A stretch of 64,000 nucleotides of DNA, taken from contig CAWDSK010000002.1 of the NCBI GenBank assembly GCA_963804995.1, forward strand, positions 480,001 to 544,000. Direction: 5' to 3'. This DNA is from an uncultured Acidobacteriota bacterium (GTDB taxonomy: Bacteria > Acidobacteriota > Terriglobia > UBA7540). The notes under the pieces are model-generated. The model was not told the DNA's origin, made no database searches, and saw nothing but the letters and a program-made list of their open reading frames with translations. Below, piece by piece: positions 11,650-47,626 of the stretch (the first letter of the stretch is position 1; every line of letters starts with the position of its first letter). The position numbers and the translations under genes were made by a program.

Positions 11650-11916
11650 CTCTCGCGATGTGTCGCATAATAAAGGTGTTAGCGGTTAAGACTCGAAATT
11701 TGCCGAAACCATATCTCACTCATTTAAAAAGGGTTAGCTTGAACTGCGTGAGCCGATGCGAAAAAACGCGGGGGGAAAAAATGAAGGATAGTCTCGCGAT
11801 ATTATTGAAAACAAATGGTGGCAAAATGTCGGTTTCTGGCCTTTCCACGATGTTGATGAAAACACATGAGTTAAAATCGCTCTCTCGCGATGTTGATGAA
11901 AAACAAGAGAGTTATT
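11650..11916 (+). repeat. AT-rich multi-box element (AATGAAGG + 3x GATGTTGATGAAAA-like boxes)
   Basis: Same architecture at 20100-20372 (minus) and 47240-47626. Confidence 0.75.
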
Positions 11917-12062
11917 GGAAATACGAGTGACAAGTGATGATTGCCGAGTGACAAGAAAAGACAGATTCGAAGGGCCAAATACGGGGCAGGGCAAGGTCGC
12001 GTTAGGGCCTGCGTGCAGATCAACTCGACTACCTGCAAGGCTCTCGGGGCTATGAAAAGGGG

Positions 12063-12316
12063 TTGCTCATGCAAAGGATGGAAGATTCCAGGCTGCGCCA
12101 ATTGTGGTGGCTCACCCGTGAGCTATTCAAGGTCCGCCGGGGGGCGCTGATCCGTAGAGATGTTAAAAATGAAGGTCGATCCGGCGATGTGTATGAAAAC
12201 ACGAGAGAAATGACAATTTGTCAGGCTATTTTTCGACCTTTTTTGCAGAAAATTCCGGAGTTTTGTGACAATCCACGACAATCGATCGGGATTGTGGGCG
12301 GAAAATACGCGGATTC
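12063..12316 (+). pseudogene. 3' remnant of an ANRxN-GPxTxEGK family gene with AT-rich tail
   Basis: LLMQRMEDSRLRQLWWLTRELFKVRR resembles the corrected C-terminus of 20334-21438; tail DNA is closely similar to 46803-46976. Confidence 0.6.
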
Positions 12317-12415
12317 GCCATAAATCAGTGCGTTCTAGAACCGGTGGGCGTACTATGGCGTTCCCGGAATCCCAAAGGAAATGGACTTGGAGACGGGACA
12401 CGCGGAGAATCACCG

Positions 12416-13522
12416 ATGACGATTGATCTGAATTTGGAACACCTGCCCGTTCCTCCCCGCAAAAAGGATTTTCGCATCGGCGCGGTGGGTGCCGGTTTCA
12501 TTATGCGGGACATCCATCTGGTCGCCTACCAGAATGCCGGCTTTAACGTCGTGGCCATTGCATCACGAGATCCTGCGACGGCGCGCGTGGCCGCTGATCT
12601 CCGGGGCATTCCCAAAGTTTACGACACCTGGCAGGAGCTTCTGGCTGACGATTCGATTGAAGTGCTTGATGTCGCCGTGCCGCCCCAGGCGCAACCGGAA
12701 ATTGTGCATGCCGCTCTCAAGCACCGGCACATTCGCGGCATTCTGGCGCAGAAACCTCTGGCCACGAATTACCCGGACGCCCAAGGCATAGTCGAGGCAT
12801 GTGAGGACGCCGGCGTGCGGCTGTGTGTGAATCAGAACATGCGTTACGACCAATCAATCCGCGCGCTCAAGACGGCGCTCCGGCGGGGATACTTGGGAGA
12901 GCCCGTGCTCGGCACCATTGAGATGCGCGCCATCCCGCATTGGAAACCCTGGGCGCGGGATTCCGCCCGACTGACTTTCCTGGTGATGAGCATTCATCAC
13001 CTGGATTGTTTCCGCTTCCTGTTTGGCGATCCCGAATGCGTCTACGCCAGCGCGCGCCCAGACCCGCGGACGACGTTTCCCCATCGCGATGGCGTTGTGC
13101 TCTACATTTTGGAATACCCCAATGGCCTGCGCGCCGCAGCGTGGGATGATGTCTGGGCGGGGCCCGCACTCGAAGGCGCGGCGCAGGACATCTACATTAA
13201 GTGGCGAGTGGAAGGAACCGCCGGGATGGCGCAGGGGACGATCGGCTGGCCAAGCTATCCCGCCCGCGTTCCCAGCACGATGCGGTTCACGACCCAGCAA
13301 CAACCCGGTTGTTGGATTTCGCCGACTTGGCCGCAAGTGTGGTTTCCCGACGCCTTTGAAGGGACGATGGGAGAACTGCTGTGCTCCCTCGAGGAAGGCA
13401 GAGACTCGGTCATCAGTGGGCGAGATAACCTCAACACAATTGCGCTGGTGGAGGCGTGTTATCGCTCGCTCGAACAGCATCGGCCGGTGCGACCGGCGGA
13501 AATCAAGGAGGAACACGCATGA
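12416..13522 (+). CDS. Gfo/Idh/MocA-family NAD(P)-dependent oxidoreductase
   Basis: RIGAVGAGFI Rossmann motif, LAQKPLA, VNQNMRY, MSIHHLD. Confidence 0.9.
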   Translation: MTIDLNLEHLPVPPRKKDFRIGAVGAGFIMRDIHLVAYQNAGFNVVAIASRDPATARVAADLRGIPKVYDTWQELLADDSIEVLDVAVPPQAQPEIVHAALKHRHIRGILAQKPLATNYPDAQGIVEACEDAGVRLCVNQNMRYDQSIRALKTALRRGYLGEPVLGTIEMRAIPHWKPWARDSARLTFLVMSIHHLDCFRFLFGDPECVYASARPDPRTTFPHRDGVVLYILEYPNGLRAAAWDDVWAGPALEGAAQDIYIKWRVEGTAGMAQGTIGWPSYPARVPSTMRFTTQQQPGCWISPTWPQVWFPDAFEGTMGELLCSLEEGRDSVISGRDNLNTIALVEACYRSLEQHRPVRPAEIKEEHA

Positions 13523-14341
13523 AACTCGGACTCATTAATTCCGCTTGGCTGGACTCCCCCGTGGGCACTGCGGAAGGCATCCGCCTGACCAAGGAGATTG
13601 GCTTTGACACTATCGACATCCTCGCCGACCCGCTCGAAATCGGCGTCAAAGAGCGCCGGCTCATCAAAGACACCTGCCACGCCGCCGGCCTGCCGGTAAT
13701 CAGCGTCTGTTGCTGCGCACTGGGTATCGCGGATTTCAGTCCCTCCGTCCGCCGGTTTCACATTGACCGTGCCAAGGCGCATCTGGATTTTGTTTATGAG
13801 CTCGAAGCCCGGAACCTGCTGCTGGTGTTGGGCGAATACATTTGGCAGCAGGAAGTGATTGCCCCGCGGAATCAATGGAATTGGGCAGTCGAGGCGGTCA
13901 GCGAATTGGGGAACTACGCCGCGGGGCTGGGGCTCGAAATCGCCATCGAGCTTGAACCGTTCCGGCTTTCCATTGTGAATACGCTTGCGAAAATGGTGGA
14001 ATTCTTGGATGACGTTCACGACCCCGCCGTGCGCGCCAATCTCGACATCTCTCATCTGGCGCTGGCGCACACGCCCGCGGAAGAAATTCCCAACCTCCAG
14101 GGGCGCATTGCCCACGTGCATTTTTCGGATTGCGATGGCACGAAGCACGGCGACCTGCCGCCAGGCCGTGGAGTGGTGGATTTTCGCCCCTACCTAGCAC
14201 AACTGAAGAAGGTGGGATTTGGCGGCGCCATCAGCATCGAGCTCGAAGTATTCCCCCGAGCCGGCGAAGATTGTCGACTGGGTCACAGAGGCCTATCGCG
14301 AAACCAACAAGCTGATGCTGGAGATTGGAATTCGCGGGTAG
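13519..14341 (+). CDS. sugar phosphate isomerase/epimerase (TIM barrel); 1-nt frameshift near 14248
   Basis: IELEP, NLDISH, HVHFSD, PGRGVVDF, ISIELE; corrected end YSPEPAKIVDWV...GIRG*. Confidence 0.88.
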
Positions 14342-14458
14342 CCCTATGACCATCGCGGCAATTTCGCATCGCCGCATCCGTAGCGGCGAGTTTACCTCGC
14401 CAAAGGGCGGCCTGAATCAGCTTCTGCCTCAAATTGAACCTGCTCCCCTCGAACTCGA

Positions 14459-14487
14459 TTGAAAGTTTTGGGAGATGCCGCTAAAAT
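14459..14487 (+). promoter_or_regulatory. sigma70-like promoter of rpmE
   Basis: TTGAAA-17 nt-TAAAAT upstream of AAGGAG RBS. Confidence 0.55.
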
Positions 14488-14519
14488 AAAGGATTGCCCT
14501 CGGGCCTAGAAGGAGTTCT

Positions 14520-14774
<255 letters not shown>

Positions 14775-14868
14775 GTGTGCATTGCGCGGGCGGCGGCATT
14801 TTCAGAACGTCATTCGCATTGCAGTCTAAAGCTCAAGGCTTGGCACGATCCAATTTGACCGGAGTCTG

Positions 14869-15669
14869 ATGGCTACAACTCCACCCACTGACCCCTACAT
14901 CAGCAAACCCAAGGTCTACCTTGTCGGGCGCCAGTTCGTGGCGGAGGGAGAGGTGGCGCGCTTCCTCGCAGACGAGGGAATGGTTTTCTCAACCGATGCC
15001 CCCACGGCTGCCGAGGTCCTGACTGAAATTGCCGGACGCACCTGCTACATGTCGTTTGGCAAAGGGCGAAAAAGCAATCGCGAGTATCTGGAGAACATCC
15101 TCTCCTCAAAGCACGGCAGTGTGCTGGAACACGCCGTGTGGTGCCTGCTGATTACAGGGGTCAGCCGCGCCCTTACGCACGAACTGGTCCGGCACCGCGC
15201 CGGCTTCGGCTATTCGCAACTCTCCCAGCGTTACGTGGATGAAAGCGATGCGCGCTACGTTGTGCCGCCGCTTTATCAGGAAGACTCGGCTCTGCGCGAA
15301 AAATGGCAGCAGACCATTGAGAGCATCCGCAAAGCCTATGCCGACTTGGCGGAGGCCACCACTGAATACGTGCAGCATAAGCACCCGGAAATGGCTCCAC
15401 GCGACCGGCGCAAGTGGGCGCGCCAGGCGGCTCGCTCCATTCTTCCCAACGCTACTGAAACCAAGATTTTCGTGACCGGAAATTCCCGCTCCTGGCGTCA
15501 CTTCCTCGAGCTGCGCGGCAGCGTGCATGCCGATACAGAAATTCGTCTGCTGGCCGTTGAGATCTACCGCGTCTTCAAAAAAGAATCCCCAAACATTTTC
15601 CAGGATATCGAGCTCGTGGATGAGCCCGATGGCATGCCTTCAGTCCGCGTCACGCACTCCAAGGTCTAA
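14869..15669 (+). CDS. thyX: FAD-dependent thymidylate synthase
   Basis: HGSVLEH, SRALTHELVRHR...SQLSQRY, ARSILPNATET, N.RSWRHFLELR. Confidence 0.95.
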   Translation: MATTPPTDPYISKPKVYLVGRQFVAEGEVARFLADEGMVFSTDAPTAAEVLTEIAGRTCYMSFGKGRKSNREYLENILSSKHGSVLEHAVWCLLITGVSRALTHELVRHRAGFGYSQLSQRYVDESDARYVVPPLYQEDSALREKWQQTIESIRKAYADLAEATTEYVQHKHPEMAPRDRRKWARQAARSILPNATETKIFVTGNSRSWRHFLELRGSVHADTEIRLLAVEIYRVFKKESPNIFQDIELVDEPDGMPSVRVTHSKV

Positions 15670-15681
15670 CGAGGCTCACCC

Positions 15682-17331: not shown

Positions 17332-17362
17332 GCCAGAAAACGCAACACGCAAGACTGGCCAG

Positions 17363-17654: not shown

Positions 17655-17671
17655 ATCGATTTCATCAACCC

Positions 17672-19639: not shown

Positions 19640-20099
19640 TGCCTCAATTGCGAGGGTTGTGAGGCCCGACTGGATTCCACCGGAGGGGGCGAAGAGTGCC
19701 ACGGGCGGCAAGATCCAACACTCTAGTGTCCATCGGGGAGTCGTCTCCGTCAAGCGAAACTTCGGTGGGGGTACCGTTTGATGTAGCGGCGGCGGAACCG
19801 GTCCCGAACTTATCGGGACGCCGACCCTTGGCGAGGTAATCTCGCCGGTCACTTCCCGATTGAAAATGTCATCGTACCCAATGCGCGTGTAGGGCGGACT
19901 TGTTTTGTAAGTCCGCGGCTTTTCCCTGCCAATAGTGAACTTGCGATTGGGCCATCGGACCATCGGATCATCAGGCCATCTATAACCAACCACGTGATCA
20001 GCCGATGGATCGATGAGCCTATGAACCGATGAGCCGGTTTTGCCTCCGCAGCCATTCATATTTCAGAATTCACCATTGAATCAATCTTGCCTCCAACGA

Positions 20100-20372
20100 A
20101 TTTCCCCTTTCTTCTCATCAACATAATGGGTTAGCGACTATAACTATCTTATTTTTCAATAATATAATGGGTTCAATGGAGACTGAAATATTTTCTACAT
20201 GTGTTTTCAACAACATAATGGGTTCAACCTTCATTTTTAATTCCCCCTTTTCTGCTGCACCAACTCCGTCGGATTCAACTAAGTTATTTAATTTCAGACA
20301 CATAGGCGTTTGGACATTTCTGCCATCCCACCCTTAAGTTCCTTTGTTTTCTAGTATATATTGGGTTAGAAG
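20100..20372 (-). repeat. AT-rich multi-box element attached to the 3' end of the ANRxN gene
   Basis: AAAAATGAAGGTTGAACCCATTATGTTGTTGAAAAC...GTTATAGTCGCTAACCCA closely matches 47485-47600. Confidence 0.78.
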
Positions 20373-21438
20373 GTCCTCTTCGCTCGCTTCCACGGCTTCC
20401 CTTTTGCCCTCTTGGCGTTTGATTTTCAGCAGCAGATTGGTGAGTCGGCGCACTTCTCGCAGGTTGGCATCTTGCATGCGCCGCATCAGCAAGCCATCCG
20501 CGTGGCTGGGCGCGACTTCCGCCGCGCGTTCGTAGGGCGAGGGCCCCGCCCAGCGACTGCTTCAGCAGGGCCTTGCGTTGCGTCTCACAACCCTCCGCCT
20601 GCCGGCTCAGGATATTCCTCAGGAGCTTGCGCGCCCGCTCCCGTGCCTTCCAGTCGTCCTTCGTGATCTTGGGGTACCGATCATCCTTTTCCGTATCTTC
20701 TCCCTCTTCATCATCGGGAAGTCCATCGATCTCTTCGGAGCCTTCGGGCCGGAGCACTATGCGCTCTCCGGAGGGGGTTAGCATAGAGACCGGCGAATCT
20801 ATCGTCTCCAGTCCGAAGATTGACCGGAAGCTGTTGATGGCGCCGCGATACCTCTCCTCTTGGGAAACTCCCTCCTTGTCCGCGCCAGGGTCCCGCAGTT
20901 GGTAGAAGAGGTCCAGGGCAATCTCACCCATTTCGGCCGCTACCCCGTCCTGCTGCAGTTTTTTCATGACTTCCAGGTCTTCGCAGGTGGTGACGTAATG
21001 CCAGCAGGCCACCGAGCGGGCCAGCGAGCGCAGCATTTCCACCGACATCTTGAGGCGCATCATCCGCGCGTGCAGCCGGTTGGGACGTCCCTGGTCAGCG
21101 CTCTGGGCGCGACGCAGCGCGTCGCCCTCCTGCGAACGATCCGCACGGTCCATCAGCCACAGGACCCGCGCCAGTCGGACCACCAATTTTTCCTGCAAGG
21201 CGCCGACGGGAGTGAATTCTTCGCGGAGTCCCGCGAGCAGTTCCTCGAAGTGAGCCGGGTCCTCCCCTAAACCGCACAAAGCCACCTCCTGCGCCCGGGC
21301 ATAGAAGCCATGACGCAGGCGCGCGGCGCCAGCGCGCTCCTTCCCCTCCACGGTCACCGGGCCTTGGGATTGATTCCCGTTGAGCCGATTGGCGGCCAGT
21401 TTCTTGTCCGACAGTTTATGTTTCTTAACTAGAGACAT
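20334..21438 (-). CDS. uncharacterised protein with AANRxNG..SQGPVTxEGK..RHG N-terminal motif; 1-nt frameshift near 20550
   Basis: GGAGG RBS; corrected C-terminus GPSPYERAAEVAP..LLMRRMQDANLREVRRLTNLLLKIKR..ILENKGT*. Confidence 0.75.
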
Positions 21439-21909
21439 GGAAAACCTCCAAGAGCAAAAACGCGTTCAGCCATCAGCCGTCAGCTTTCAGCTTACTGCCT
21501 AGTGCCGATTCCGACTTGTCAGGACTCGCAAAGGGGTCTCGCTGCCTACTGCTTATCCCGACTTGTCGGGACTCGCAAAAAGCGCTCGCTGCCTACTGCC
21601 TTCTGTTTCTCCCCAGGCCCCAAGCACCTAGCACTCAGCGCCGGGCACTTCACATTAAGATTAACATTTATCGTAGGGGTAATTGCAATGAGAAGATTTA
21701 CGCTTGGGCTACCGGTAGCCCAAATCGTACACGAGGGGCGTCTAATTGTCCGAATTCGTCCCTGCGCTACCCTCGATGTCCGCAAGTCCTTTCACCGTAG
21801 GGGGAGTCGCCGCGGCGACACCGTGGCCCGCTCGTCTCAGGGCAGGAGCAAAAAGACCGCAGTCTGCGCTGGGGAGCCGATGTACAATAGGGTCGGAGGT
21901 TGTGAAACG

Positions 21910-22101
21910 ATGCGGGGTTACGAATTCACGGTGGTGATTGAGAGGGACGAGGATGGGCGGTTTGTGGCCATTTGTCCCGCCCTCCAGGGTTGCTATACCG
22001 AGGGGGAGACCGAGGAAGAAGCACACCAACTTATTGAAGACGCCATCCGGCTGCACGTCGAGAGCCGAATTGCGAGAAAGGAATCCTTCGCCAAATTATG
22101 A
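21910..22101 (+). CDS. HicB-like antitoxin (short, no adjacent hicA)
   Basis: FTVVIERDEDGRFVAICPALQGCYTEGETEEEA..IEDAI; GGAGG RBS. Confidence 0.85.
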   Translation: MRGYEFTVVIERDEDGRFVAICPALQGCYTEGETEEEAHQLIEDAIRLHVESRIARKESFAKL

Positions 22102-22226
22102 GGGATGCGGAACTTACTTTTGACAACATGATGAAGGGGTGACCCTGGCTGGCGCAGAGATTACAGTTCGAACCGCGCCTGAGGTTGTGTGACCCGGAGG
22201 TGGCCACGGCCAATTCGTCTTGGGAA

Positions 22227-22276
22227 TTGACCGTGGGTTCGTCATAGAGTATTCTTTTAGCACCTAAAAAGGTGCT
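22227..22276 (+). promoter_or_regulatory. TA promoter with palindromic operator
   Basis: TTGACC-17 nt-TATTCT followed by AGCACCT-AAAA-AGGTGCT. Confidence 0.7.
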
Positions 22277-22293
22277 TTTAAAGGAGCAGGTCC

Positions 22294-22584
22294 ATGCTTG
22301 ACATTACCAAGGACATCCAGTCGCTGACGACCTTCCGCCGCCGGTCCGGCGAATTCATGAAGCATCTAAGAAGGAACAAGCGCCCCGTGGTGCTCACCGT
22401 GAGGGGGAAAGCAGCGGCCATCGTACAGGACGCCGAAGCCTATCAGCGATTGCTCGATATTGCCGCCCAGGCCGATGCCGAGGAAGGCATTCGTCAGGGC
22501 TTGGATGACGTCGCCCACGGACGCACTCGCCCGGCGAGAGAGGTATTTGACGAGATTCGCCGCAAACATGACATACCTCGTTGA
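22294..22584 (+). CDS. Phd/YefM-family antitoxin
   Basis: IQSLTTFRR...KRPVVLTVRGKAAAIVQDAEAYQ...GIRQGLDD. Confidence 0.9.
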   Translation: MLDITKDIQSLTTFRRRSGEFMKHLRRNKRPVVLTVRGKAAAIVQDAEAYQRLLDIAAQADAEEGIRQGLDDVAHGRTRPAREVFDEIRRKHDIPR

Positions 22585-22894
22585 GTTTGCCGCTCGCGCG
22601 GTCCGCGATCTTGAAACCCTTTATGTGGAAAAGAACGCTGCGGAGTCACACGCTGCGGGGCGCTGGTATAACGAGTTGGAGCTGGCGGTCTATGCGCTCG
22701 CATCGTACCCCCATCGCTGCCCCGTAGCCCCGGAGGCTCGGAGGATGAAGCGAGAGTTACGGAACCTGCTTTATGGCAAGAAGCCTCACGTTTATCGGGT
22801 CATTTATGAAGTCGATGAAGGCCGCCAAGCGGTGTCAGTGCTCACCATCCGCCACGGCGCAAGACGCAAGATTAAGGCGTCCGATCTCGCATAG
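22568..22894 (+). CDS. RelE/ParE-family toxin
   Basis: YLVEFAARAVRDL...PHRCPVAPE..RNLLYG..YRVIYEV..V.VLTIRHGAR; overlaps the antitoxin stop. Confidence 0.9.
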   Translation: MTYLVEFAARAVRDLETLYVEKNAAESHAAGRWYNELELAVYALASYPHRCPVAPEARRMKRELRNLLYGKKPHVYRVIYEVDEGRQAVSVLTIRHGARRKIKASDLA

Positions 22895-32241: not shown

Positions 32242-32242
32242 A

Positions 32243-34687: not shown

Positions 34688-35335
34688 GCCCTGCAGGGGC
34701 ACGATACAATAGCCGGGGGCAACGCCCCCGGAACAGCGTCCAGAACATGCGCCGACCCTGACGGGGTCGATAGGTTGTGCTTCACAACCACAGATAACGC
34801 TCATCAAAGGGAACCCGGTATTTCTTCAGCAGCAGCAATAACTCTTGCTCGAAGGTTTGCCTTTTGTGTCGTTCCTTCTGACCCGTTATGTAGATCTTCA
34901 ACGCCTCCACTTGGGACTCGCCGACGGTAAAAGCTCCGTACCCGTCCTGCCAACTGAATGACCGAAACGCGTTGCCCTTCGTTTTGATCCACTTGGAGGA
35001 GCTTTTCTTCAGTTCCTCCATCAAATGGCAAAGGGCAATTTTCTTGGACTGCGAGACCAAGAGGTGGACGTGATTTTCTGTCCCGCCGGCAGCAAGGCAA
35101 CGTGACTCTAAGTTCTTCGCCGTCCCCCCCCATATATGCATAGAGCTCAGGCTCGACCTCGGGGGTGATCAACGATTGGCGGTTCTTGGTCGAAAAAACC
35201 ACATGTACCATCAGGCTTACTAGCGTCTGAGCCATGGTTGTCCTGCTGCTGAATTGACCCTTTCAGGGTCAGTAAGTAGGCGCCCACTTTCCGGGGGCTT
35301 TGCCCCCGGCTATTCAATTCATCCCCTGCGGGGAT
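34688..35335 (-). mobile_element. IS200/RAYT-like element: Y1 transposase between inverted triple-hairpin flanks
   Basis: Flanks 34688-34770 and 35254-35335 are inverted homologs (CCCTGCAGGGG..AATAGCCGGGGGCAACGCCCCCGGAA..GACCCTGA.GGGGTC). Confidence 0.8.
34782..35235 (-). CDS. tnpA: IS200/IS605-family Y1 (HUH) transposase; frameshift in a G8 run near 35128
   Basis: HVVFSTKNR, NHVHLL (HUH), KKSSSKW, FSWQDGYGAF, YITGQ (catalytic Tyr). Confidence 0.9.
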
Positions 35336-35436
35336 TCAATTGGTACCGGTCCGTAGCTTTCACGCTCGGCACGCCCCCAACTGTTAAATGCATCCCGTAC
35401 GGGGATTCACCGCGCTTGCTGCCTTCCGCCTTCTGC

Positions 35437-36316
35437 CTACTGCTTACTGCCTATTGCCTGCCCCAGGGCGCGAATGAATTCCGGGTTGGTTCCGCAGCAC
35501 CCACCCAGGAAGTTCGCACCCGCGGCGAGTAAGGCTGGCGCATGCCGGGCGAACTCCTCCGCACTCGTCCGGTATTGCGTTTGACCCTCTACGAGCTGCG
35601 GCAACCCTGCATTGGGCTTAATCCAAATCGGGAGTGGAGTTGAGTCGTGGAGCCGCTTCGTAAGGGGAGCATAGCTTTCGATGCCTTGCCCGCAGTTAGC
35701 TCCGATGACATCCGCGCCCGCGGCGGTGAGCTCGGCGGCTGCCTCCTCCGGCGTCGTACCCATCATGGTCCGGTCGTAGTTCTTTCCGGAATCAAAGGCC
35801 ATGGAGACAATCACCGGGAGGCCCACACCTCGCGCCGCCTGAACCCCGACCTTCGCTTCCGCCAGGTCGCTCATGGTTTCGAAGATCAGGGCGTCAGCTC
35901 CAGCCTCTGCCAAGGTTTCGGCCTGCTCGGCGTAAGCCGCGCGGAGTTCCTCTTCATTGACCTCCCCCATCATCAGCAGCTTGCCGCTCGGCCCGAGCGA
36001 AGCGAACACGCGGGCTCGCCCCGCCGCGGCGCGACGGGAAATTTCCACGCCCAGGCGGTTGATTTCCTTCAGGTGCTCGACTCGCCCATGACGCTTCGAG
36101 CGCCAGGCGATTGGCGCGGAAAGTGTTGGTCAGGATGACTTGGCTGCCCGCCTCCACATAAGCGCGCGCGACTTCTTCCACGCGGTCAGGGTGCGTCAGA
36201 TTCCAGACGTTGGGGCATTCACCGGCTTCGAGCCCACGCGCCTGGAACTCCGTTCCCCAAGCGCCGTCGGTAAGAATGGGTCCGTGCGAAATAAGCTGTT
36301 GTATCAAGGCGTGCAT
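35437..36316 (-). CDS. homocysteine S-methyltransferase-family protein (stand-alone MetH Hcy domain); frameshift near 36090
   Basis: DGAWGT, ILTNTF, SLGPSG, FETMSD, IGANCG, KPNAGLP, LGGCCGT. Confidence 0.9.
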
Positions 36317-37247: not shown

Positions 37248-37503
37248 GTAGATAGTGGGCAGAAGGCAGTAGGCAGTAGGCAGAAAGCAGAGAACCACAT
37301 GTTGCCCTATTCCGCCGTCCGGTCTACGTTCCTGCTTTCTGCCCCGAAGGGGCAAACCGTGAGATGCGATCCGCAGGTTGAAACCTGCGGCTATTCATGG
37401 ACGGCCCCTTCAGGGCCTGCCTACTGCTTACTGCCTACCGCATACCGCCTACTGCTTTCCGCCTTCCGCCTTCTGCTTTCTGCCTACTGCTTTCTGCCTA
37501 CTG
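37248..37503. repeat. inverted GGCAGTA/TACTGCC heptamer arrays enclosing a solo triple-hairpin element
   Basis: 37248-37293 versus 37418-37503; hairpin element at 37339-37417. Confidence 0.8.
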
Positions 37504-39052
37504 TCAACTCGATTCGCTTACCAAGGTTATCCAAGTGAACGAAACGATTGGCCAGGGCGTTGGTGCCATCCAGGCGCCAGTCGCGCGGGGGGATGAGCGT
37601 GCGAGCGAATTTTCGTGGATCGTCTCCCATCGCCAGCGCGCCGTGGTAAATCGTGTTCCAGATGCACGGTTGCTCGGGATGGACCTCACAAGTGCCGTCG
37701 ATTCGCGAGCCACCGCAGGGGCCGTTGCGCAGCTCCTTGTAGCACCAGCGCATGGAGCAGCCGGCGTAATCAAGGTGGTCTTGCAGGCAATCGCCGCAAC
37801 TCTTGCAACCCAGCGTGGCTTTGCGGTACAGGGTGGAGGGCTCAAGCAGCCAATACCACAGGCCGTGGCGCCAGGAATCCGTTTTGCCATTCGTCTTGAG
37901 GTGAGAACCAAAAAAGCGCGCGCCCAGCGAACCCTCGGCAATCAGGTGACGGTGCACCAGCTTCGAGAGCCACTGCGTGAAGGTGGCGTGGGGCTTCCGG
38001 TGGCTAAGTTGGTAGTTGCCCGTGGCGTCGCTCAAGCCCTCAGCAGCCGGGGGCAGCAGATAGAATTCGTTCGCGGTGGGGATCACCAACTCGTCCAGGC
38101 GCTTTCGCCAATCGCTTCCGATCGCCGCGGCGCGCTCCGCAATGGTCATAAAATCGCGATGCGCAAGGCCGAAGCCGCCCACGTGCGCTCCGGCAAAGCC
38201 CAGGTCCTTCACGGCCGCCACCATCAGCGCGGCCCGTTCCAGGCGTTCGGGTTTCTTCTCTTTTTCCAACCGCCTGATGAGCTCGTCGGGAATGACGCAG
38301 CCCGCCACTTCCCCGGCCTGCATCATCTGCGCGATTTTGGCCGTGGGAACATAGACGTTGGCGAGCACCGGGATGTGACCCAATCCCTCGCGCTCCAGGT
38401 ATTGCTTCAGCTCGTAAAGCTTGCGCAGGTTGTATCCCAGTTGGGTGATGATGAATCGGGCTCCAACCGCGATTTTCAATTGCAGCTTGTAGAGCTGCAT
38501 CATCAGGTCAGACTCGTGGACCTTGTAAGGGTTCACTACGGCGCCGCTGAAGAAATCAAAAGGGGTGCTGTGGATGGTGCGCGGGCCCAGGTTGTACTCA
38601 ATGCCCTTGCGCATGGCCTCGATCAACCAAAGGATGAGGACGGAGTCCAGGTCATAGACGGGTTTCGACCTGCCCGCGAAGCCCTCTTTTTGTGCGTCGC
38701 CCGTCAGGGCCAGAATGTTTTCGACACCCAGGCGGGCTAGACTGTGCAGGCGGCCTTCGAGGGACGACCGGTTCCCATCCTTGCCCGTCAGGTGGGCAAT
38801 CGGAGTCAGCCCCAGGTCTTTGATTCCTGCCACGAATGCTTCGGGGGGCAGCGCAGGGTTGCCGCCCGGCAGGTCTGTCACGCTGATGACCTTGATGCCA
38901 TTGGCCTCGGCGGCGGCTTCCTTGACGAAAGTCTCCGCCTCCACGACGTTGTGGTCCCGCCCCAGCACGAGCTCCGCCGTGCAGAAGAATTGCTTCTTCT
39001 TGAGCGCCAGCTTCAAATGGTTTCCCGTTCCCGCTTCTTCGCCTGCAGTCAT
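37484..39052 (-). CDS. metF: methylenetetrahydrofolate reductase with fused C-terminal MetV-like Cys-rich domain
   Basis: [34 protein letters not shown]-terminal [24 protein letters not shown]. Confidence 0.85.
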
Positions 39053-42557: not shown

Positions 42558-42578
42558 CACGGAAGGAGACATACAACG

Positions 42579-43145
42579 ATGGGTCTAGCGATTCTCGTGG
42601 GATTAGTGGTCGTCCTGGTGGTGGTAGGGGTCTTCGTCTACCTGATCACGATTTACAACAGCCTGGTGCGCCTCAAGAACGACATCGATAAGGCCTGGGC
42701 GAATATCGATGTGCTGCTCAAGCAGCGGCACGACGAACTTCCCAAGCTGATTGAAACCTGCAAAGGCTATATGCAGTACGAGCAGAAGACGTTTCAGCTC
42801 ATTACCGAAGCGCGCACGGCGTTCATGAAAGCCGGTACCGTGAGCGAAAAGGCTCAGGCTGACAACATGATTACCGGCGCGCTCAAAAGCCTGTTTGCCG
42901 TGTCGGAGAACTATCCGGAACTGAAGGCCAACAACAACTTCATGCAATTGCAGAAACGCATCTCGGAGTTGGAAGAGAAGATCGCCGACCGGCGCGAATT
43001 CTTCAACGACGATGTGAATACTTACAACATTCGCATTCAGCAACTTCCCGATGTGTTCCTGGCGCGTATGATGAACCTGCAACACCATGACCTGTTCAAG
43101 GTTGCGGAGGAGGATCGCCAGGACGTTGAGGTGAAGATGAGCTAA
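42579..43145 (+). CDS. lemA: LemA-family protein
   Basis: YNSLVRL..AWANIDVLLKQRHD.LPKL, AVSENYPELKAN.NF.QLQ, E.KI...R.FFN. Confidence 0.95.
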   Translation: MGLAILVGLVVVLVVVGVFVYLITIYNSLVRLKNDIDKAWANIDVLLKQRHDELPKLIETCKGYMQYEQKTFQLITEARTAFMKAGTVSEKAQADNMITGALKSLFAVSENYPELKANNNFMQLQKRISELEEKIADRREFFNDDVNTYNIRIQQLPDVFLARMMNLQHHDLFKVAEEDRQDVEVKMS

Positions 43146-43213
43146 GCCCCTGCGGGCAGATTTCCGGGCAAGCGGTTTGCACGCTTTACGCTTCCGCCCG
43201 AAAGGAGCCGGAT

Positions 43214-43807
43214 ATGATGCTAGCCATGATCGGCCTGGGGCTTGTGGTGGGACTGGCCATCCTCGTGTTTTTGGTCGTGATTGTTATCGCCGTGGTTGGG
43301 TACTTCGTGGGCATTTACAACAGTCTGGTCACGCTCAAAAACGACATCGATCGCTCCTTCTCCAATATTGACGTGCTGCTGAAGCAGCGGCACGACGAAC
43401 TGCCCAAGCTCATCGACACCTGCAAAGGGTACATGCAATACGAACAGAAGACTCTCCAGGCGGTTACCGAAGCCCGCACCGCTTACCTGCGCGCCTCCAC
43501 GCCCGCCGAGAAGACTCAAGCCGATAACATGGTCACCGGCGCGCTCAAAAGCCTGTTTGCCGTAGCCGAAAAATATCCGGACCTCAAGGCCGATGCAAAT
43601 TTCATGCAACTGCAAGGGCGCATCACGGAACTCGAGGAAAAGATTGCCGGGCAGCGCGGCCGCTATAATGAAGACGTCAACGATTTCAATATCCGCATTG
43701 CTCAGATTCCCGCCAACTTCGTCGCGGGCTTCATGGGACTCCAGCCCCACGCCCTCTTCCAGGTTGCGGAAACCGACCGCGAAGACGTGAAAGTCAGCTT
43801 CACTTAG
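43214..43807 (+). CDS. lemA: LemA-family protein (tandem paralog)
   Basis: YNSLVTL..SNIDVLLKQRHDELPKL, AVAEKYPDLKA. Confidence 0.95.
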   Translation: MMLAMIGLGLVVGLAILVFLVVIVIAVVGYFVGIYNSLVTLKNDIDRSFSNIDVLLKQRHDELPKLIDTCKGYMQYEQKTLQAVTEARTAYLRASTPAEKTQADNMVTGALKSLFAVAEKYPDLKADANFMQLQGRITELEEKIAGQRGRYNEDVNDFNIRIAQIPANFVAGFMGLQPHALFQVAETDREDVKVSFT

Positions 43808-43814
43808 TGCCAAC

Positions 43815-43843
43815 AAAAAAGGCCCGCTTGGGGGAGCGGGCCT
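43815..43843 (-). terminator. intrinsic terminator (U-tract on the minus strand)
   Basis: AGGCCCGCT-CCCCCA-AGCGGGCCT followed by TTTTT on the minus strand. Confidence 0.8.
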
Positions 43844-43881
43844 GGGGAAAGGAGGAAACCTGAAACGGTTTCAGTCCTATC

Positions 43882-43917
43882 TTATCTCTTCTTTTTCTTT
43901 GCCTTCTTCGCTGCCAT
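43882..43917 (-). CDS. putative 11-aa basic micropeptide MAAKKAKKKKR
   Basis: AAGGAGG RBS 8 nt upstream of ATG, TAA stop, own terminator and upstream TTGACA. Confidence 0.6.
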   Translation of the reverse strand: MAAKKAKKKKR

Positions 43918-43960
43918 ATTGTTCCCCTCCTTTGTTGGAATTTTTTGGGGCCTACGCGAG

Positions 43961-44026
43961 AGACCAGTATTTGTGGTCTGGCGCGCTCTTACCACTATAT
44001 GTAGTATGCTTCGAACAACTTGTCAA
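43961..44026 (-). promoter_or_regulatory. tandem NrdR-box-like sites next to a TTGACA -35 element
   Basis: CCACTATATGTAGTAT (43992-44007) plus weaker AGACCAGTATTTGTGG (43961-43976), 31 bp apart; TTGACA at 44026-44021. Confidence 0.55.
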
Positions 44027-44111
44027 GCAAAATGTTGGGCAATATGTTCGGCGACGATGCGCCGCTATCTTCCGGACGGTTTCGGTTCGCCTTTTTGTCA
44101 CGAGGGACTTG

Positions 44112-44461
44112 TGTAGCGCTGCCCTTATGGATTTTGAATTTAGTAACTTGTTTCGATGCCGTGCGGGTGTAAGTAACCCCTCATCCGGCCTCCTACGTCA
44201 GCCACCTTCTCCCCTCGGGAGAAGGCTATTATCCGGTTCCGGCCAGGGGAAGGTTATATCGAAGCGCCCGCTGGCCAAATTGAAGACCCATTCTCTGCGT
44301 ATGCCGATGGAGCACCCCCTTGAATAACCGCCCTCTCCGAGGGGAGAGGGTGGACCGCCGCCGGCGTTTTCATCAGCCGGGGCGGGACGGGTGAGGGGTC
44401 ACTTGGGGGCTCGGGGCGTTTGAGAATTCCAGGAATTCAAAAACCATAAGGTCGGCGCTAC
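44112..44461 (-). repeat. composite MITE-like element, second copy
   Basis: Inverted homolog of 17363-17654 with a longer central spacer. Confidence 0.8.
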
Positions 44462-44626
44462 GCTTGTCTGGATTGCCTCAGTGAGAGGGTAGGAGTAGAA
44501 TCACCGCGCTTGCGGCCGCCAAGTGCGGAGTCCATGCGCACACCCGACCTGATGCTCTTAGCTGAGCCGATGAACCGATGGCCAGATCACCGGATCACCC
44601 GATCTCCCGATTCCCCCAGGTGCCCT

Positions 44627-45997
44627 ATGAAACTCCACTTCCTCATCTTGGTTCTGTTGCTCGCCGTTGTCACTCAGCCCGCTCTGCCGCAGGAAGCCAA
44701 CGTGCCACTGGGGAAGGACCAGGTCCTGGATCTGGTGAAGTTCGGGTTAGACAGTGGTGAATTGGCGAAGCGCATCAAGGAGCGGGGCATTGACTTCGAG
44801 CCGACCGACGATTACCTCGCAACATTGAGCCAGGCGGGCGCGCAGGAGGCGGTCATTCACGCCTTGCGCGAAGCCAGGCCGAAACCCCTGACCCGCGAGC
44901 AAGTGGGCAAATTAGTGGCAGGCGGAGTGCCCAGCCAGCGCGCCGTGATGCTGGTGAAGCAACACGGTATCGATTTCGTGGCGGATGAGCGGTATCTCCA
45001 GACCCTGCGAGTGGCGGGCGGGGACGACGCCTTGATCGCGGCTCTCCGTCAGGCGAGCGCCGCCGTGACGGCGGAACTGGTGGTTTCAACTTCCCCGAAT
45101 GCCCAGGTCTTTCTGGATGGAGAACTCCAGGGGCACGCCAACGCGCAAGGTGATCTGACGATAAAATCAAAGCCCGGGGCCCACGCGCTGAAAGTTACTC
45201 TGGCAGGCAAGAATGATTTCGAGCAGAGCGTCACACTCGCCGCGCAGCAAGCAACCAAGATCCAGGCGCGGCTGGAGGATATCGTTTCACCGCCGCCGCC
45301 CGGTACCGTCCGGGAGAACCCAAAAGACGGGTTGAAGTACGTCTGGATTCCCCCTGGGACATTCATGATGGGGTGCTCGCCGGGGGACGATGAATGCTTC
45401 GACAACGAGAAGCCGGCACACCAGGTGACCCTGAGCAAGGGCTTTTGGATCGGGCAGACGGAAGTTACGGTGGCCGCCTACAAACGCTTCGCAGCAGCCA
45501 CAGTACGGCAACCGACTTTCAACGGCAGTCGGGCGAATGACGCCATGCCGATCGCGCATGTGGACTGGAATGACGCACACGACTACTGCACTTGGGCGGG
45601 AGGGCGACTGCCCACGGAAGCAGAGTGGGAGTATGCGGCGCGGGCCGGGAGGGCGGAGGCGCGCTATGGGGCGCTCAACGAAGCCGCTTGGTATGATGCT
45701 AACAGCGGAGGGCAGGCCCACGAGGTCGCACAAAAGCGCGCGAACGGGTTCGGATTGTTCGACATGCTCGGAAATGTGTGGGAATGGGTCAACGACTGGT
45801 TTGGAGAGAACTATTATGCCGCCAGCCCGGAGCGGGATCCGCAAGGTCCGGACAGTGGTCAACATCACGCTCTGCGAGGCGGGTCGTGGTACTTCAGGGC
45901 CAATGTCATTCGTTTTTCGTGCCGTGCCAAGGGGGATCCAGCCGGTCCGATCCCTGGGCTCGGTCTTCGTTGTGCGCGGGAAGTTAATATTCCTTGA
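44627..45997 (+). CDS. secreted protein: duplicated RGIDF module + PEGA + FGE-sulfatase (SUMF1-like) domain
   Basis: IPPGTFMMG, TEVT, RLPTEAEWEYAAR, NGFGLFDMLGNVWEW, RGGSW, G.RC. Confidence 0.9.
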   Translation: MKLHFLILVLLLAVVTQPALPQEANVPLGKDQVLDLVKFGLDSGELAKRIKERGIDFEPTDDYLATLSQAGAQEAVIHALREARPKPLTREQVGKLVAGGVPSQRAVMLVKQHGIDFVADERYLQTLRVAGGDDALIAALRQASAAVTAELVVSTSPNAQVFLDGELQGHANAQGDLTIKSKPGAHALKVTLAGKNDFEQSVTLAAQQATKIQARLEDIVSPPPPGTVRENPKDGLKYVWIPPGTFMMGCSPGDDECFDNEKPAHQVTLSKGFWIGQTEVTVAAYKRFAAATVRQPTFNGSRANDAMPIAHVDWNDAHDYCTWAGGRLPTEAEWEYAARAGRAEARYGALNEAAWYDANSGGQAHEVAQKRANGFGLFDMLGNVWEWVNDWFGENYYAASPERDPQGPDSGQHHALRGGSWYFRANVIRFSCRAKGDPAGPIPGLGLRCAREVNIP

Positions 45998-46554
45998 TTC
46001 TTTTTTCTTTTCCCTTAACGTCTTTTTGAGGGGGTTCCGGGGCTCTACCCCGAACGAAAATTCTTGGGGATGACCCATGCCCTCTGGTGGCGCGGGCAGG
46101 TCGGCAATGCCACGGTCAGCGCTACATCTCATTAACCCTCGCCCCCTGGGGGTTCGACGTAGCGCCGAGCCCGCACGGTAGCACAGGCACTCCTGCCTGT
46201 GAATGCGGCTCGATGTTCGAGCATATCGACACAGCCAGGAGTGGCTGTCCCACTTTACTCGGACAATTCGTTGCCCGCTTTGCATTTTTGGGCTACCGGT
46301 AGCCCAAACCTCAACATTGCCTATTGACATAGCCCAGTCGATGAAGCGCACAATAGAGGTGAGGAAGCGTTGCGTCCTGATGTGTCCAGGCAGTCCTCCA
46401 AGAACCACGGACCCCTTGGTGGGCTTCCAGCCCGTGAAAGGTCACGGCCAAGACCCCGATGCATCGGGGCAGGTCGGCCGTGCCACGCTTGGGTTGCGGC
46501 TCTGCCGCGCTGTAGCACTAAGCGCCAACGTCTTCGAGTGCCGCGCAGAAAAGA

Positions 46555-46688
46555 TTCACCACAGAGGGCACAGAGGTCACGGAGAGTAGACGGAGAAAAA
46601 ATTGCGGGTTAACAACCAAGGAAGCGGGATCTCTACCCGCGCCATCAGAAGCGCTTTTCTCTGTGGTCTCTGTGCCCTCTGTGGTGAA
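46555..46688. repeat. inverted nonamer arrays (CACAGAGGG-type)
   Basis: TTCACCACAGAGGGCACAGAGGTCACGGAG ... CTCTGTGGTCTCTGTGCCCTCTGTGGTGAA. Confidence 0.75.
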
Positions 46689-46802
46689 TCTTTTCTGCGC
46701 AGGTCCTTGCTCAAGCGGCCTAGGGTGAGTCTGGCAGCACGCGAGGCGTTCCAAATGGATTTGCTATTACACCCGACGAACACGCCGACCAACGTCCGGG
46801 AA

Positions 46803-47626
46803 GGGGCGCTGACTCGTAGAAATGTTAAAAATGAGGGAACCTCCGGGGATGTGTATGAAAACACAGGAGAGGGAACAAAATGTCAGGTTATTGTTCGAGC
46901 TTTTTGCAGAAAATTCCGGAGTTTTGTGACAATGGACGGCAATCGAACGGGATTGTGGGCCGACAATGCACAGGTTATACGGAAATTCGGGGCGAACCAG
47001 CGCCGACCTTCAGAGCCCTCCCCGAACACTTCCGGTTATCGGCGGGTTGGGACACGAATCTGAGCTCACCAATCGGCCTGGAGTTGGGCAATCCCGCACC
47101 CTCGATCAGGCGTCGCAGACGGGCGGAAGGTGGTGGGTCAAATGGAGAACGTAGCGGCGAGTTCACCTCTCCAAAGGTGGGCGTCCCGATAGGATCGAGA
47201 TCGATTCCGTCCCGTCGGCATCCGGTTGGCTCACCACCCTATCCCACGATGTTTCAGATAACAAAAGGAGTTAGCGAAGAGGAGCAAAAACTCTCAAAAT
47301 GTAACTCATTGAAACAACAAGACTAATTCAATCTGCGGAAATTTACTCAAGCCCATAAGCCACTATGTTATAGAAAGCAAAAGGGGTTAGCGAAGAGGAG
47401 AAGAAACTTGGCAAAATTCTATCTCATTGAAATAAGGCGAGTTAATCGATTCTGTTGCAAATGGGGTGAGGGAAAAAGGGGGAACTAAAAATGAAGGTTA
47501 AACCCACGATGTTGTTGAAAACAAAGAAAGAAGGAAGTGACATTTTGACTAATGCCACGATGTTTATGAAAAATAAGCTAGTTATAGTCGCTAACCCACG
47601 ATGTTTATGAAAATAAAGGGGGTTAT
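46803..47626 (+). repeat. ANRxN-family 3' remnant tail plus AT-rich multi-box element with an internal duplication
   Basis: 46803-46976 matches 12145-12316; 47240-47626 matches 20100-20372 and 11650-11916. Confidence 0.75.

Follow-up and report, generated by a model that had tools for sequence, protein, structure and literature searches.

In the genome of an uncultured Acidobacteriota bacterium a gene of the ANRxN...GPxTxEGK family is carried in a polar unit that begins with a conserved 5' block and ends on a box array, and 45 such units are dispersed in the genome, always running from 5' block to array in a single orientation. Five of the 45 hold the N-terminal part of the gene, and three further gene copies lie outside this set. 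The family is read here, tentatively and with slightly less than an even chance, as a lineage-specific, modular, dispersed DNA unit which behaves as selfish or mobile DNA and has gene-less derivatives. Besides the window, i.e., the whole stretch of 64,000 nucleotides that was analysed, the whole genome (7.55 Mb) was searched with profiles for the box array, the 3' coding end, and the 5' block.

Anatomy and Polarity of the Unit

The original prediction had placed one gene and four gene-less tail pieces in the window, and all five are present within a few bases of where they had been put:

11429-11906, plus: unit A, with a 5' block at 11429-11501 and then a gene-less box array at 11769-11906
12049-12326, plus: 3' coding end and tail fragment of a second paralogue (LLMQRMEDSRLRQLWWLTRELFKVRR..DVKNEG..DVYENT)
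20105-20372, minus: box array of the gene copy, with further boxes 135/136, 51, and 40/41 nt apart
20334-21438, minus: gene of the ANRxN...GPxTxEGK family, ATG at 21438
20334-20546, minus: C-part of the broken gene, in the other frame
20545-21438, minus: N-part of the broken gene
21439-21686, minus: leader, from the 5' block to the start codon, with 7-nt tandem words of GCAGTAG / GCTGAAA type
21687-21793, minus: 5' block of the gene-bearing copy, with TTCGGACAATT, palindrome TTTGGGCTACCGGTAGCCCAAA, and -35-like TTGCAA (nhmmer match 21687-21754, pair alignment, sequence)
46259-46331, plus: 5' block of unit B (nhmmer match, repeat family)
46805-46986, plus: tail of unit B, second paralogue type (..NVKNEGTSGDVYENT..), without coding remainder upstream
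47244-47620, plus: boxes of unit B, singles at 47244-47274 and about 47360-47390, then a standard three-box array at 47478-47620

In the gene-bearing copy the homology to the sister copy C2:725017-726641 begins at 21793 and the common 3' end of the family lies at about 20105; the bin that holds its box array has a GC content of 0.436 versus about 0.58–0.60 around it. As had been noticed from the letters, the last codons of the gene run into the AT-rich array, the first box of 20105-20372 overlapping ..ILENKGT*, and arrays without the gene were located at 11650-11916 and 47240-47626, the gene-less tails spanning 11650-12326 and 46805-47620. The two coding-end fragments reported at 12063-12316 and 46803-46976 are 78–87% alike, and both match the C-terminus of the intact paralogue C3:26900-27876. 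The positions of the four pieces described as tail-only stand, but the pieces are not bare, as units A and B each open with a 5' block of the gene type. The fragment at 12049-12326 lacks a separate 5' block; the closest one belongs to unit A and lies 548 bp upstream.

The gene of the window is interrupted by one indel, just as had been proposed. The first frame from the ATG at 21438 stays open as far as 20284, the C-terminal end of the family (...LLMRRMQDANLREVRRLTNLLLKIKR...ILENKGT*) is found in a second frame with its stop at 20334, and the break is a single surplus G in GGCGGGGCCC, near 20545-20549. When four DNA runs (metagenome contigs of relatives) were compared, base 20549, exactly one base, was missing in 4 contigs from 3 of the 4 runs, and such contigs span the 3' gene/array junction, for example, over 19992-20766. 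The same frame break was found in two copies, which indicates either the copying of a dead gene or an assembly artefact; a programmed frameshift at this shared break was set aside, the site being a plain G-run with one surplus base and the relatives reading through.

The complete form is about 1.45–1.8 kb long and consists of the 5' block, a leader of short tandem words, one gene, and the box array. The 5' block combines TTCGGACAATT, a 22-nt palindrome with a CCGG centre, and a -35-like hexamer, before which about 70 nt are likewise conserved. The palindrome GGGCTACCGGTAGCCC, with a conserved GTAG, is present at 66 sites; the palindromes of relatives carry different arms around the centre, in which GTAG or GCAG is retained. 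The leader of the window copy (21439-21686) folds no better than shuffles (z = −0.72). The boxes are about 30 nt long and AT-rich, the first one beginning within the last codons of the gene, and the unit ends on a fixed AT-rich array (...AAAGGGAGTTA). The genome has 73 matches of the box pattern GATGTTNATGAAAA and none of the reversed pattern, and the recurrence of the boxes is not due to chance. Their spacing is quantised, with intervals of 40/41 nt (35 cases) and 51 nt (42 cases) that approximate 4 and 5 helical turns.

The profile count of genome copies, which had been suggested as a check, gave 85 matches of the box array, 33 of the 3' coding end (25 of these gene-less), and 126 of the 5' block, beside the 45 block-to-array units; 69 of the 126 block matches cover at least 45 model positions, and most others are the palindrome on the opposite strand. 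The 5' block stands upstream and on the same strand in 59 of 77 long arrays, never on the opposite strand and never downstream; the other 18 arrays have no block within 2.5 kb, and many blocks have no array. Among N-terminal gene matches, 8 of 11 have the block 88–249 bp upstream. Six copies match the N-terminal query over its full length, and 5 of them bear out the predicted linkage of the tails to the 3' end of the gene, having the box array about 300–350 bp downstream; a more distant seventh copy, C3:27307-27876, is also followed by a box array. Sister copies change partners at the palindrome and within the array, so that the ends of the units are mosaic; recombination among copies is thus frequent and could alone move pieces.

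Gene-Less Derivatives and Dispersal

Of the 25 gene-less coding-end matches 18 retain the 5' block, on the same strand and no more than 900 bp upstream, and the gene-less pieces are therefore mostly internal deletions, while 7 of the 25 have no block within this distance; the reading frames of the coding-end pieces are mostly broken. Remnants of the coding end that lie between block and array show the gene-less units to be descendants of gene-bearing ones, and most copies are shorter, the gene having been lost by internal deletion with both ends kept. The variable 5' break points and the common 3' end of the coding end, on which the original prediction was built, were found again: the breaks range from model position 1 to 150, and most copies end at 196–206. 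The break points cluster in groups at positions 9–11, 68–71, and 110. Since subfamilies share their deletion points, deletion came first and copying afterwards, the gene-less forms having been copied further.

The same break points had been taken to suggest one-ended or RNA-mediated spread. An RNA intermediate, or a replication from the 3' tail that stops early, would leave a LINE-like 5' truncation and might make use of a group II intron reverse transcriptase. The common 3' end with variable breaks, the 7 pieces without a block, and the richness of the genome in group II introns (49 sites matching the intron 5'-end motif) are consistent with this route. Nevertheless, the 18 pieces with a block keep it including the sequence before the -35-like hexamer, which would be absent from any transcript; because the retained block precedes the presumed transcription start, it would be missing from a retrocopy, which makes RNA-mediated spread unlikely. 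The hallmark of a retrocopy, a 5' truncation that loses everything upstream, is thus not what these 18 of 25 pieces display, and the same is indicated by the 59 arrays with a block upstream. The recurrence of deletion points in subfamilies and the lack of an A-tail and of target duplications argue in the same direction, and the sole ORF of the unit matched no reverse-transcriptase family. On the sequence evidence the retained 5' blocks largely refute this route already, and it is considered very improbable.

Several observations favour the reading of the units as selfish or mobile DNA. Recent copies with unrelated flanks are represented by one pair 95.4% alike over 1651 bp and another 98.2% alike over 1438 bp, and in the class of units of about 573 bp the pairwise identity reaches 93%. 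In genome G071 four of five compared gene copies are about 90% identical over about 820–950 bp containing the gene alone. The positions are non-syntenic in relatives, contrary to what would be expected of fixed loci: 5 relatives keep the neighbouring radical-SAM gene and none of them has a module beside it, the site C1:206558-207179 is a spacer of 60–96 bp in 3 relatives, and at 6 of 6 mappable unit loci of G015 and G007 the genome G000 is without the unit. Rearrangements between species have break points that are marked by the units. Against mobility, the copy upstream of gyrA occupies one shared site in 7 of the 29 genus genomes and is stable there.

The number of boxes ranges from 1 to 94 across all 29 genus genomes, while of the 119 genomes searched outside the genus none has more than 7 and 117 have no more than 2. 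The palindrome variant, with its 66 sites here, has 7, 7, and 1 in three congeners and 0 in 25. Across the 29 related genomes, genome size correlates with the number of genes of the family (rho 0.80) and with that of boxes (rho 0.76), and the correlation between these two numbers (rho 0.70, same genomes) is therefore confounded. Two genomes of 93–98% completeness have 7 gene matches with 2 boxes (G148) and 5 gene matches with 4 boxes (G015).

Two checks of insertion, for empty sites and for target duplications, had been proposed in the original prediction. No exact empty/filled junction was obtained within the genome or in relatives, where presence and absence are seen at orthologous sites with spacers too diverged or rearranged for junction reading and where three further loci have their flanks on different contigs. 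One candidate for an empty site within the genome, C2:651113/652257, was rejected, having a REP hairpin on the left and the 5' end of a group II intron on the right. Ends could be defined, to within a few bases, for 22 of the 45 units. Between their 30-nt flanks the longest direct match has a mean of 4.0 nt (maximum 6) versus 4.2 nt for swapped partners, giving no indication of target duplications, and between their 50-nt ends the longest exact inverted match has a mean of 5.3 nt (maximum 7) versus 5.2 nt for swapped partners, giving none of terminal inverted repeats.

Autonomous transposons with MITE-like derivatives are known for few gene-bearing copies and many internal-deletion copies that keep both ends. 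The present units resemble them in subfamilies amplified after deletion, in a copy number that varies strongly between sister species, and in non-syntenic positions. They differ in the lack of terminal inverted repeats and target-site duplications (22 of 45 units), in the dissimilar ends, a palindrome block versus a direct box array, and in a sole gene for which the family and fold searches and the conserved residues gave nothing transposase-like.

The Encoded Protein and Its Superfamily

By the measure of its sequence the gene is a real, fast-evolving one, which is under purifying selection with dN/dS of 0.31–0.51 in 15 pairs. With a threshold of E ≤ 0.001 the profile search for its superfamily, clustered at 50% identity, yielded 28,910 cluster representatives, and with E ≤ 1e-10 it yielded 12,083; the superfamily is multi-copy in many Terriglobia genomes. 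The intact paralogues and 12 distant relatives gave no Pfam, NCBIfam, PHROGs, or PADLOC match at or near threshold, and the family scans agree with the earlier impression that the protein has no transposase, integrase, or reverse-transcriptase signature. Among the columns at least 90% conserved in 58 members N20, S24, E59, and three Arg stand out, and no transposase- or recombinase-type Asp, His, Tyr, or Cys is found in them. The ENKG box is not a protein motif, since 7 of 18 aligned family proteins stop before it.

The protein is predicted to be all-helical. The structure search that had been proposed assigned no fold: the whole-protein model (pLDDT 76.2) had no Foldseek match at E ≤ 0.001 and its best VIA-align hits (Z up to 9.8) were designed or generic helical bundles, and the N-terminal 125 residues (pLDDT 85.8) reached a best Foldseek E of 0.47 (PcfF) and a best Z of 6.0. 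These fold matches reflect a common helical arrangement only and exclude no family. Comparison of the profile with PDB sequences gave chance helical matches only (best E = 0.0085, HLA chains), and the nearest clusters in the ESM Atlas are Acidobacteriota proteins without a name.

Thus a very large superfamily without a name or a Pfam, NCBIfam, PHROG, or PADLOC model obtains in this genus its first handle, as the gene is accompanied by conserved non-coding parts that persist after its loss, which makes a binding test (boxes and palindrome, as DNA and RNA) well defined. A limited literature search on repeats and mobile elements of Acidobacteria and Terriglobia gave nothing on the unit or the protein among the matches listed.

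Competing Readings and Related Systems

In the preferred reading of a selfish or mobile unit, copying would proceed at the DNA level into intergenic DNA, and the two conserved ends would be the cis sites needed for it. The original prediction had also mentioned a binding protein with cognate sites, and a nucleic-acid-binding protein of this kind is part of the preferred reading as a best guess: the family protein would bind the boxes and/or the palindrome in trans without being a classical transposase, and another enzyme of the host or of an element would perform the DNA chemistry. Any movement of the units would take place without a known transposase, inverted repeats, or target duplications and would mean a new kind of mobility or a new hitch-hiking strategy. 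A more specific proposal, unlikely on present evidence, is a new class of selfish elements, in which a helical non-enzymatic nucleic-acid-binding protein acts with a species-specific head palindrome and phased tail boxes that define the copied DNA, and gene-less derivatives parasitise the protein in trans; it would give the superfamily its first function and would mean the spread of DNA without an element-encoded transposase.

According to another explanation, which is rather unlikely, the units are transcription units and not a transposon: the 5' block would drive an RNA whose unstructured A-rich array offers many binding sites, as a platform or sponge, to an RNA-binding protein. This might be the protein of the family itself, in a type III-like addiction pair, and the gene-less copies would be selected RNA genes or "antidote-only" loci multiplied by duplication or recombination. 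The gene-less copies indeed retain the parts of a transcript, upstream block and array in one orientation; the array is conserved as nucleic acid where the frame is destroyed, its box is not a protein motif, it folds worse than shuffles (z = +1.44), as with single-stranded binding platforms, and no intrinsic terminator follows it in the three copies scanned. A co-oriented gene comes next downstream in 30 units and an oppositely oriented one in 14, and for 1 unit no downstream gene was found. Against transcription units stand the sigma-70-type consensus scan, which detected no site in the 5' block of any of the three window copies and also counts against the preferred reading, the conservation of the 70 nt upstream of the -35-like hexamer, a box number ranging more widely within one genus than would be expected of an RNA regulator, and the near absence of boxes in G148 and G015, which keep the gene. 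A sigma-70-type site, TTGACA-16-TACCAT, is present upstream of the gyrA-linked copy. The search for box hairpins gave a mean best stem of 3.31 for same-box flanks versus 3.43 for swapped flanks and no stem covariation, the column-wise search of the boxes revealed no antidiagonal, and Rfam on three loci (14,915 bases) gave one chance-level row of 32 bits versus a gathering score of 268. In type III toxin-antitoxin loci such as ToxIN, exact tandem repeats precede the toxin gene and the RNA is structured. The units share with them a protein gene and direct repeats in one presumed transcript and a multi-copy, patchy occurrence; however, the repeats here are downstream, 40/41/51 nt apart with unlike spacers, and predicted to be unstructured, and the protein resembles no known toxin or defence protein.

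It is also conceivable, with a still lower probability than that of the new class, that the parts have no link at all: boxes, block, REP hairpins, and 7-8-nt word arrays would be separate components of the dense BIME- or BOX-like mosaic of intergenic repeats that is typical of these genomes, and the gene an ordinary decaying paralogue family in repeat-rich spacers. Several other repeat families do share these spacers, namely REP hairpins, heptamer arrays, and the CCCTCACCCC...GGGTGAGGGG hairpin family, and the mosaic boundaries, the 18 long arrays without a block, the many blocks without an array, and the confounded gene/box correlation agree with such independence. It is opposed by the fixed order and orientation of block, gene, and array, with 0 of 77 arrays wrongly oriented, by arrays that begin inside the last codons even in paralogues only 45–59% identical and in congeners, by the coding-end remnants between block and array, and by paralogues 30–55% identical to the gyrA-linked copy that carry the block at the same upstream distance. 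In Streptococcus pneumoniae BOX elements have the order boxA - boxB(n) - boxC, and BIME/REP mosaics are likewise modular. Similarity to these lies in polar intergenic modules with a head and boxes about 40–50 nt apart, in dozens of copies and with no transposase inside, whereas the full form here holds a protein gene with its stop codon in the first box, and its boxes have no hairpin and are nearly fixed in number and spacing. If the units are immobile, they are abundant head-block-plus-array modules before unrelated genes, gyrA included, which would bear on the rewiring of expression in large soil genomes.

REP/REPIN sequences are short palindromes tied to RAYT (Y1/HUH) transposases. The present family is similar to this system in a GTAG palindrome in dozens of copies, one associated gene family, and species-specific variants, and differs in that the associated protein is not a Y1 transposase and the palindrome is on one side of the gene only. 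None of the 14 Y1_Tnp (PF01797) genes has the palindrome CTACCGGTAG, present at 64 sites, within 1.5 kb. Putative mobile promoters and promoter reuse were described by Nijveen, Matus-Garcia, and van Passel (2012, PMC3575422); the present block differs in being the head of a longer unit with gene and tail and in a promoter not picked up in the three window copies, and is alike as a highly similar upstream block before unrelated genes, the next of which is co-oriented in 30 of 44 cases.

The unit and its modules in the genome

Profiles made from four pieces of the window were used for an iterative search of the whole genome (G000; 7.55 Mb, 58.5% GC, 9 contigs, written C1, C2 and so on, with the window at C2:480001-544000). 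This search returned 126 matches of the 5' block (69 covering at least 45 model positions, the remainder being for the most part opposite-strand readings of the palindrome), 85 of the box array, 33 of the 3' coding end, and 66 of the tail of a second paralogue type; the gene itself was located by tblastn with its N-terminal 298 residues at 6 full-length and 5 partial N-terminal places. The order and orientation of the modules are constant (5' block, optional gene, 3' coding end, array), and a count of units extending from a block to an array gave 45 in the genome. An array match of at least 90 model positions was obtained 77 times; a same-strand 5' block lies within 2.5 kb upstream of 59 of these arrays, no opposite-strand block occurs in that range, and no array has a block downstream.

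The 5' block begins sharply at T(T/C)CGG(A/G)CAAT, with TTT-GGGCTACCGGTAGCCC-AAA about 25 nt past its start and a -35-like TTGACA, TTGACT, or TTGCAA about 20 nt further on; the 5' side of the unit carries TTCGGACAATT and the 3' side ends after the last box (...AGTTA). The 3' end of the array is common to all, directly after the last box (...AAAGGGAGTTA), and subfamilies or unique flanks lie beyond it. The window array at 20105-20372 is AT-rich (GC 0.436 in its bin versus about 0.6 nearby) with TCCCACGATGTTGATGAAAACAAAGGGAGTTA as box consensus, and the start-to-start spacing of boxes is quantised (40/41 nt, n = 35; 51 nt, n = 42; 135/136 nt, n = 14). Elsewhere in the genome three to four tandem 5' blocks occupy 430 bp at C5:300706-301133 without gene or array. 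One distant paralogue lacks the ENKG end and precedes a different box variant, AAAGCTGAGAACATGTTGAAAACAAAG (C6:1344507-1345700, C1:567645-567730, and C1:80257-80340), which is also found elsewhere as pairs 54 nt apart; each gene clade may own a box variant built on a common TTGAAAACAAA core.

The starts of the gene and of the two gene-less units in the window are as follows:

Window 21438, minus strand: start of the gene ORF, which opens with MSLVKKHKLSDKKLAANRLNGNQSQGPVTVEGK
Window 11429-11501, plus strand: 5' block at the start of gene-less unit A
Window 46259-46331, plus strand: 5' block at the start of gene-less unit B

The family reading frame of the window gene shifts by one base near 20545, and the C-terminal end LLMRRMQDANLREVRRLTNLLLKIKRQEGK...YILENKGT* lies in the other frame with its stop at 20334. 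The original prediction of one indel in this gene was correct: in comparison with three intact paralogues the break is a single additional G in GGCGGGGCCC, and one base is missing at 20549 in four metagenome contigs (relatives 90–95% similar; 3 of 4 runs). The sister copy (C2:725017-726641) shows the identical apparent break, with 97.7% protein identity over the N-terminal part. Each of the gene-less arrays reported earlier was found again in the window, as were both coding-end fragments, which match the C-terminal end of a further intact paralogue (C3:26900-27876). Small ORFs adjoin the gene-bearing unit at 21890-22894; judged by eye from their motifs, one of them (MRGYEFTVVIERDEDGRFVAICPALQGCYTEGETEEEA...) may be similar to HicB-type antitoxins, and those at 22294-22584 and 22460-22894 may resemble a Phd/YefM-ParE-type pair.

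Gene loss and proposed spread of the unit

The 3' coding end follows the gene in 8 of its 33 matches and is gene-less in the other 25. These gene-less pieces start at model positions 1 (three times), 8, 9 (twice), 10 (twice), 11, 35, 39, 68, 69 (three times), 71, 80 (twice), 95, 96, 110 (four times), and 150, and nearly all of them terminate at positions 196–206. Thus the predicted pattern of conserved 3' ends with variable 5' loss holds for the coding part. However, a 5' block is retained 71–548 bp upstream in 18 of the 25 pieces (7 have none inside 900 bp), which indicates that internal deletion removed the gene. In the window only the fragment 12049-12326 is without its own 5' block. Break points are common among copies, namely, at 9–11 (block 73–75 bp away) and at 110 (array 88 bp away), and therefore the deleted forms were copied after deletion. 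The reading frames of the gene-less remnants are mostly broken, while the array and the final ~60 nt of coding sequence remain conserved as DNA. Because 7 of 18 aligned family proteins stop before the ENKG box, this box is regarded as a nucleic-acid feature which the ORF only overlaps in some copies.

Recent copies are found in unrelated surroundings: the window copy and its sister are 95.4% identical over 1651 bp and C6:1401862-1403299 and C4:37155-38592 are 98.2% identical over 1438 bp, in both cases with unrelated flanks, and nine gene-less units of 563–592 bp can be aligned end to end with pairwise identity up to 0.93. The units are non-syntenic in relatives of the same genus. The radical-SAM gene adjoining the window copy is conserved in five of them (G013, G003, G017, G007, and G005), with none of the four modules in the 6.3–6.4 kb beside it. 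The genes flanking C1:206558-207179 are adjacent in G013, G005, and G008, with 60–96 bp between the aligned parts versus about 920 bp in G000, and the counterpart in G003 and G017 holds other box-bearing DNA; at three further loci the two flanks fall on different contigs in five relatives. Eight palindrome-variant loci of G015 and G007 are each a gene-less unit, and the 6 whose flanks could be mapped sit where G000 has no unit.

Copy numbers differ considerably between genomes. Sites of GGGCTACCGGTAGCCC with at most 1 mismatch number 66 in G000, 7 each in G007 and G015, 1 in G147, and 0 in the 25 other genomes of the genus, and a search of 120 other genomes of the class for the 20-nt palindrome form (at most 2 mismatches) gave a single site, in one genome. 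Relatives possess the same architecture; their arms differ and the centre is CCGG or CCCG, as in TTTCCTGCCGGTAGGAAA. The box pattern is present in all 29 genus genomes (1 to 94 per genome; backward controls 0–1) and reaches at most 7 per genome in 119 genomes searched outside the genus, while gene matches at E <= 1e-40 number 0–17 per genome (in 28 of the 29). The number of genes correlates with that of boxes (rho 0.70); this is weak evidence because each count also rises with assembly size (0.80 for genes, 0.76 for boxes) and the genomes are kin.

One copy is stably placed:

G000 C2:130794-132223 (L001:2001-3430), co-oriented with gyrA: intact 371-aa paralogue with box array, directly upstream of gyrA

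Six further members of the genus (G017, G004, G145, G008, G018, and G147) keep it in this place, from which it is absent in G005, G003, G086, and G013; the proteins of this site are 59% identical across species versus 66% to a copy elsewhere in G086. This stability counts against simple transposition, as do the mosaic boundaries between sister copies and the fact that no exact insertion junction was obtained. One apparent empty site in G000 proved to be a false one, with a REP hairpin on one side and the 5' end of a group II intron on the other. Neither terminal inverted repeats nor target duplications were found in the 22 units, out of 45, whose ends could be defined.

The family protein and the non-coding parts

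The gyrA-linked protein is the closest intact paralogue; a search that scored 8000 candidates gave 616 relatives of it at E <= 0.001. Among 120 listed relatives the source names are "hypothetical protein" and one automatic label "predicted transcriptional regulator", and the taxon, where given by the few source names, is Terriglobia. A profile of 18 members matched 28,910 cluster representatives at E <= 0.001, 12,083 at 1e-10, and 288 at 1e-30, and no family match was obtained in Pfam, NCBIfam, PHROG, or PADLOC. The predicted models are all-helical (helices up to 64 residues) with a disordered middle of variable length, and fold searches with them gave only generic helical matches. Across 58 members, conservation reaches 90% or more at A16, N20, S24, G26, G32, G58, E59, P77, W94, R95, and R98, a set that does not look catalytic. 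The dN/dS of 0.31–0.51 (15 pairs) indicates that the gene is real and constrained. Of 121 genomes of the class, 38 contain the wider family, frequently with many copies; in G071, 4 of 5 compared copies are ~90% alike over ~820–950 bp which contain only the gene and short flanks.

Compared with shuffles, the box array has less predicted folding (z = +1.44) and the leader folds no better (z = -0.72); box flanks pair no more than swapped flanks, and no Rfam family matched. In consensus scans the 5' blocks of the window's three copies gave no sigma-70-type site, and a good one (TTGACA-16-TACCAT with TG) lies upstream of the gyrA-linked copy, which is without the palindrome; by eye TTGACA-N16-18-TAnnnT precedes the relatives' copies, and we infer a putative promoter in the unit. 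Among the copies scanned, none has an intrinsic terminator after the array. A crude ORF call based on GC3 placed the next gene-like ORF downstream in the orientation of the unit in 30 cases and in the opposite one in 14; in 1 case there was none. Arrays of 7-nt words (GCCTACT/GCTTTCT type) were also seen in leaders and spacers (window 21462-21521, 35400-35473, and 37398-37520), some forming inverted pairs (37254-37291 and 37472-37509, for example), and in relatives' gene leaders two halves of such arrays look complementary by eye.

Interpretation and further elements

A selfish, mobile modular unit is the reading that fits best, being favoured by fixed polarity, descent of gene-less from gene-bearing forms, amplified deletion subfamilies, non-synteny, and copy-number swings. 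The conserved head and tail would be its cis-acting parts; the family protein, which does not look like an enzyme, may be the factor recognising the boxes and/or the palindrome, and the DNA chemistry would then be performed by something else. RNA-mediated 5' truncation, which the original prediction had offered for the variable 5' loss, is largely excluded by the upstream blocks still present.

The main rival is that the units transcribe a box-array RNA, as a protein platform or as part of an addiction pair. It accounts for the same retained parts of the unit; however, it fits less well, for boxes are nearly missing from certain complete congeners in which the gene is retained (G148 and G015). 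That independent repeats came together by pure coincidence is unlikely in view of the strict module order and the coding remnants.

Further elements were noticed. The 5' end of a variant group II intron (GTGCGCCGGGATAAACCGGCAGGAAGCAGAGGATG...) begins directly past the last box (...GGGAGTT/GTGCGCC) in 4 units outside the window, mostly as short stumps:

G000 C2:652253-652340: variant intron end
G000 C6:158091-158130: variant intron end
G000 C7:25746-25710: variant intron end
G000 C1:206552-206460: variant intron end

The main intron family differs in following REP hairpins (...GGTCTG/GTGCGCC) at most of the 49 motif-matching sites, and the box-array end may be a homing target for a second intron lineage. 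A further element lies within the window:

Window 34878-35129, minus strand: Y1 (IS200/RAYT-type) transposase match, between 45-nt inverted repeats
Window 34689-34733 and 35289-35333: the 45-nt inverted repeats, containing CCGGGGGC...GCCCCCGG

The region 34689-35333 resembles a RAYT accompanied by REPs of its own and has no relation to the unit palindrome. In G000 this palindrome is absent from the 1.5 kb on either side of all 14 Y1 (RAYT/IS200-type) genes. Finally, nine tandem copies with a 102-nt period, 60–75% alike, at window 7187-8302 are probably a repeated protein domain.
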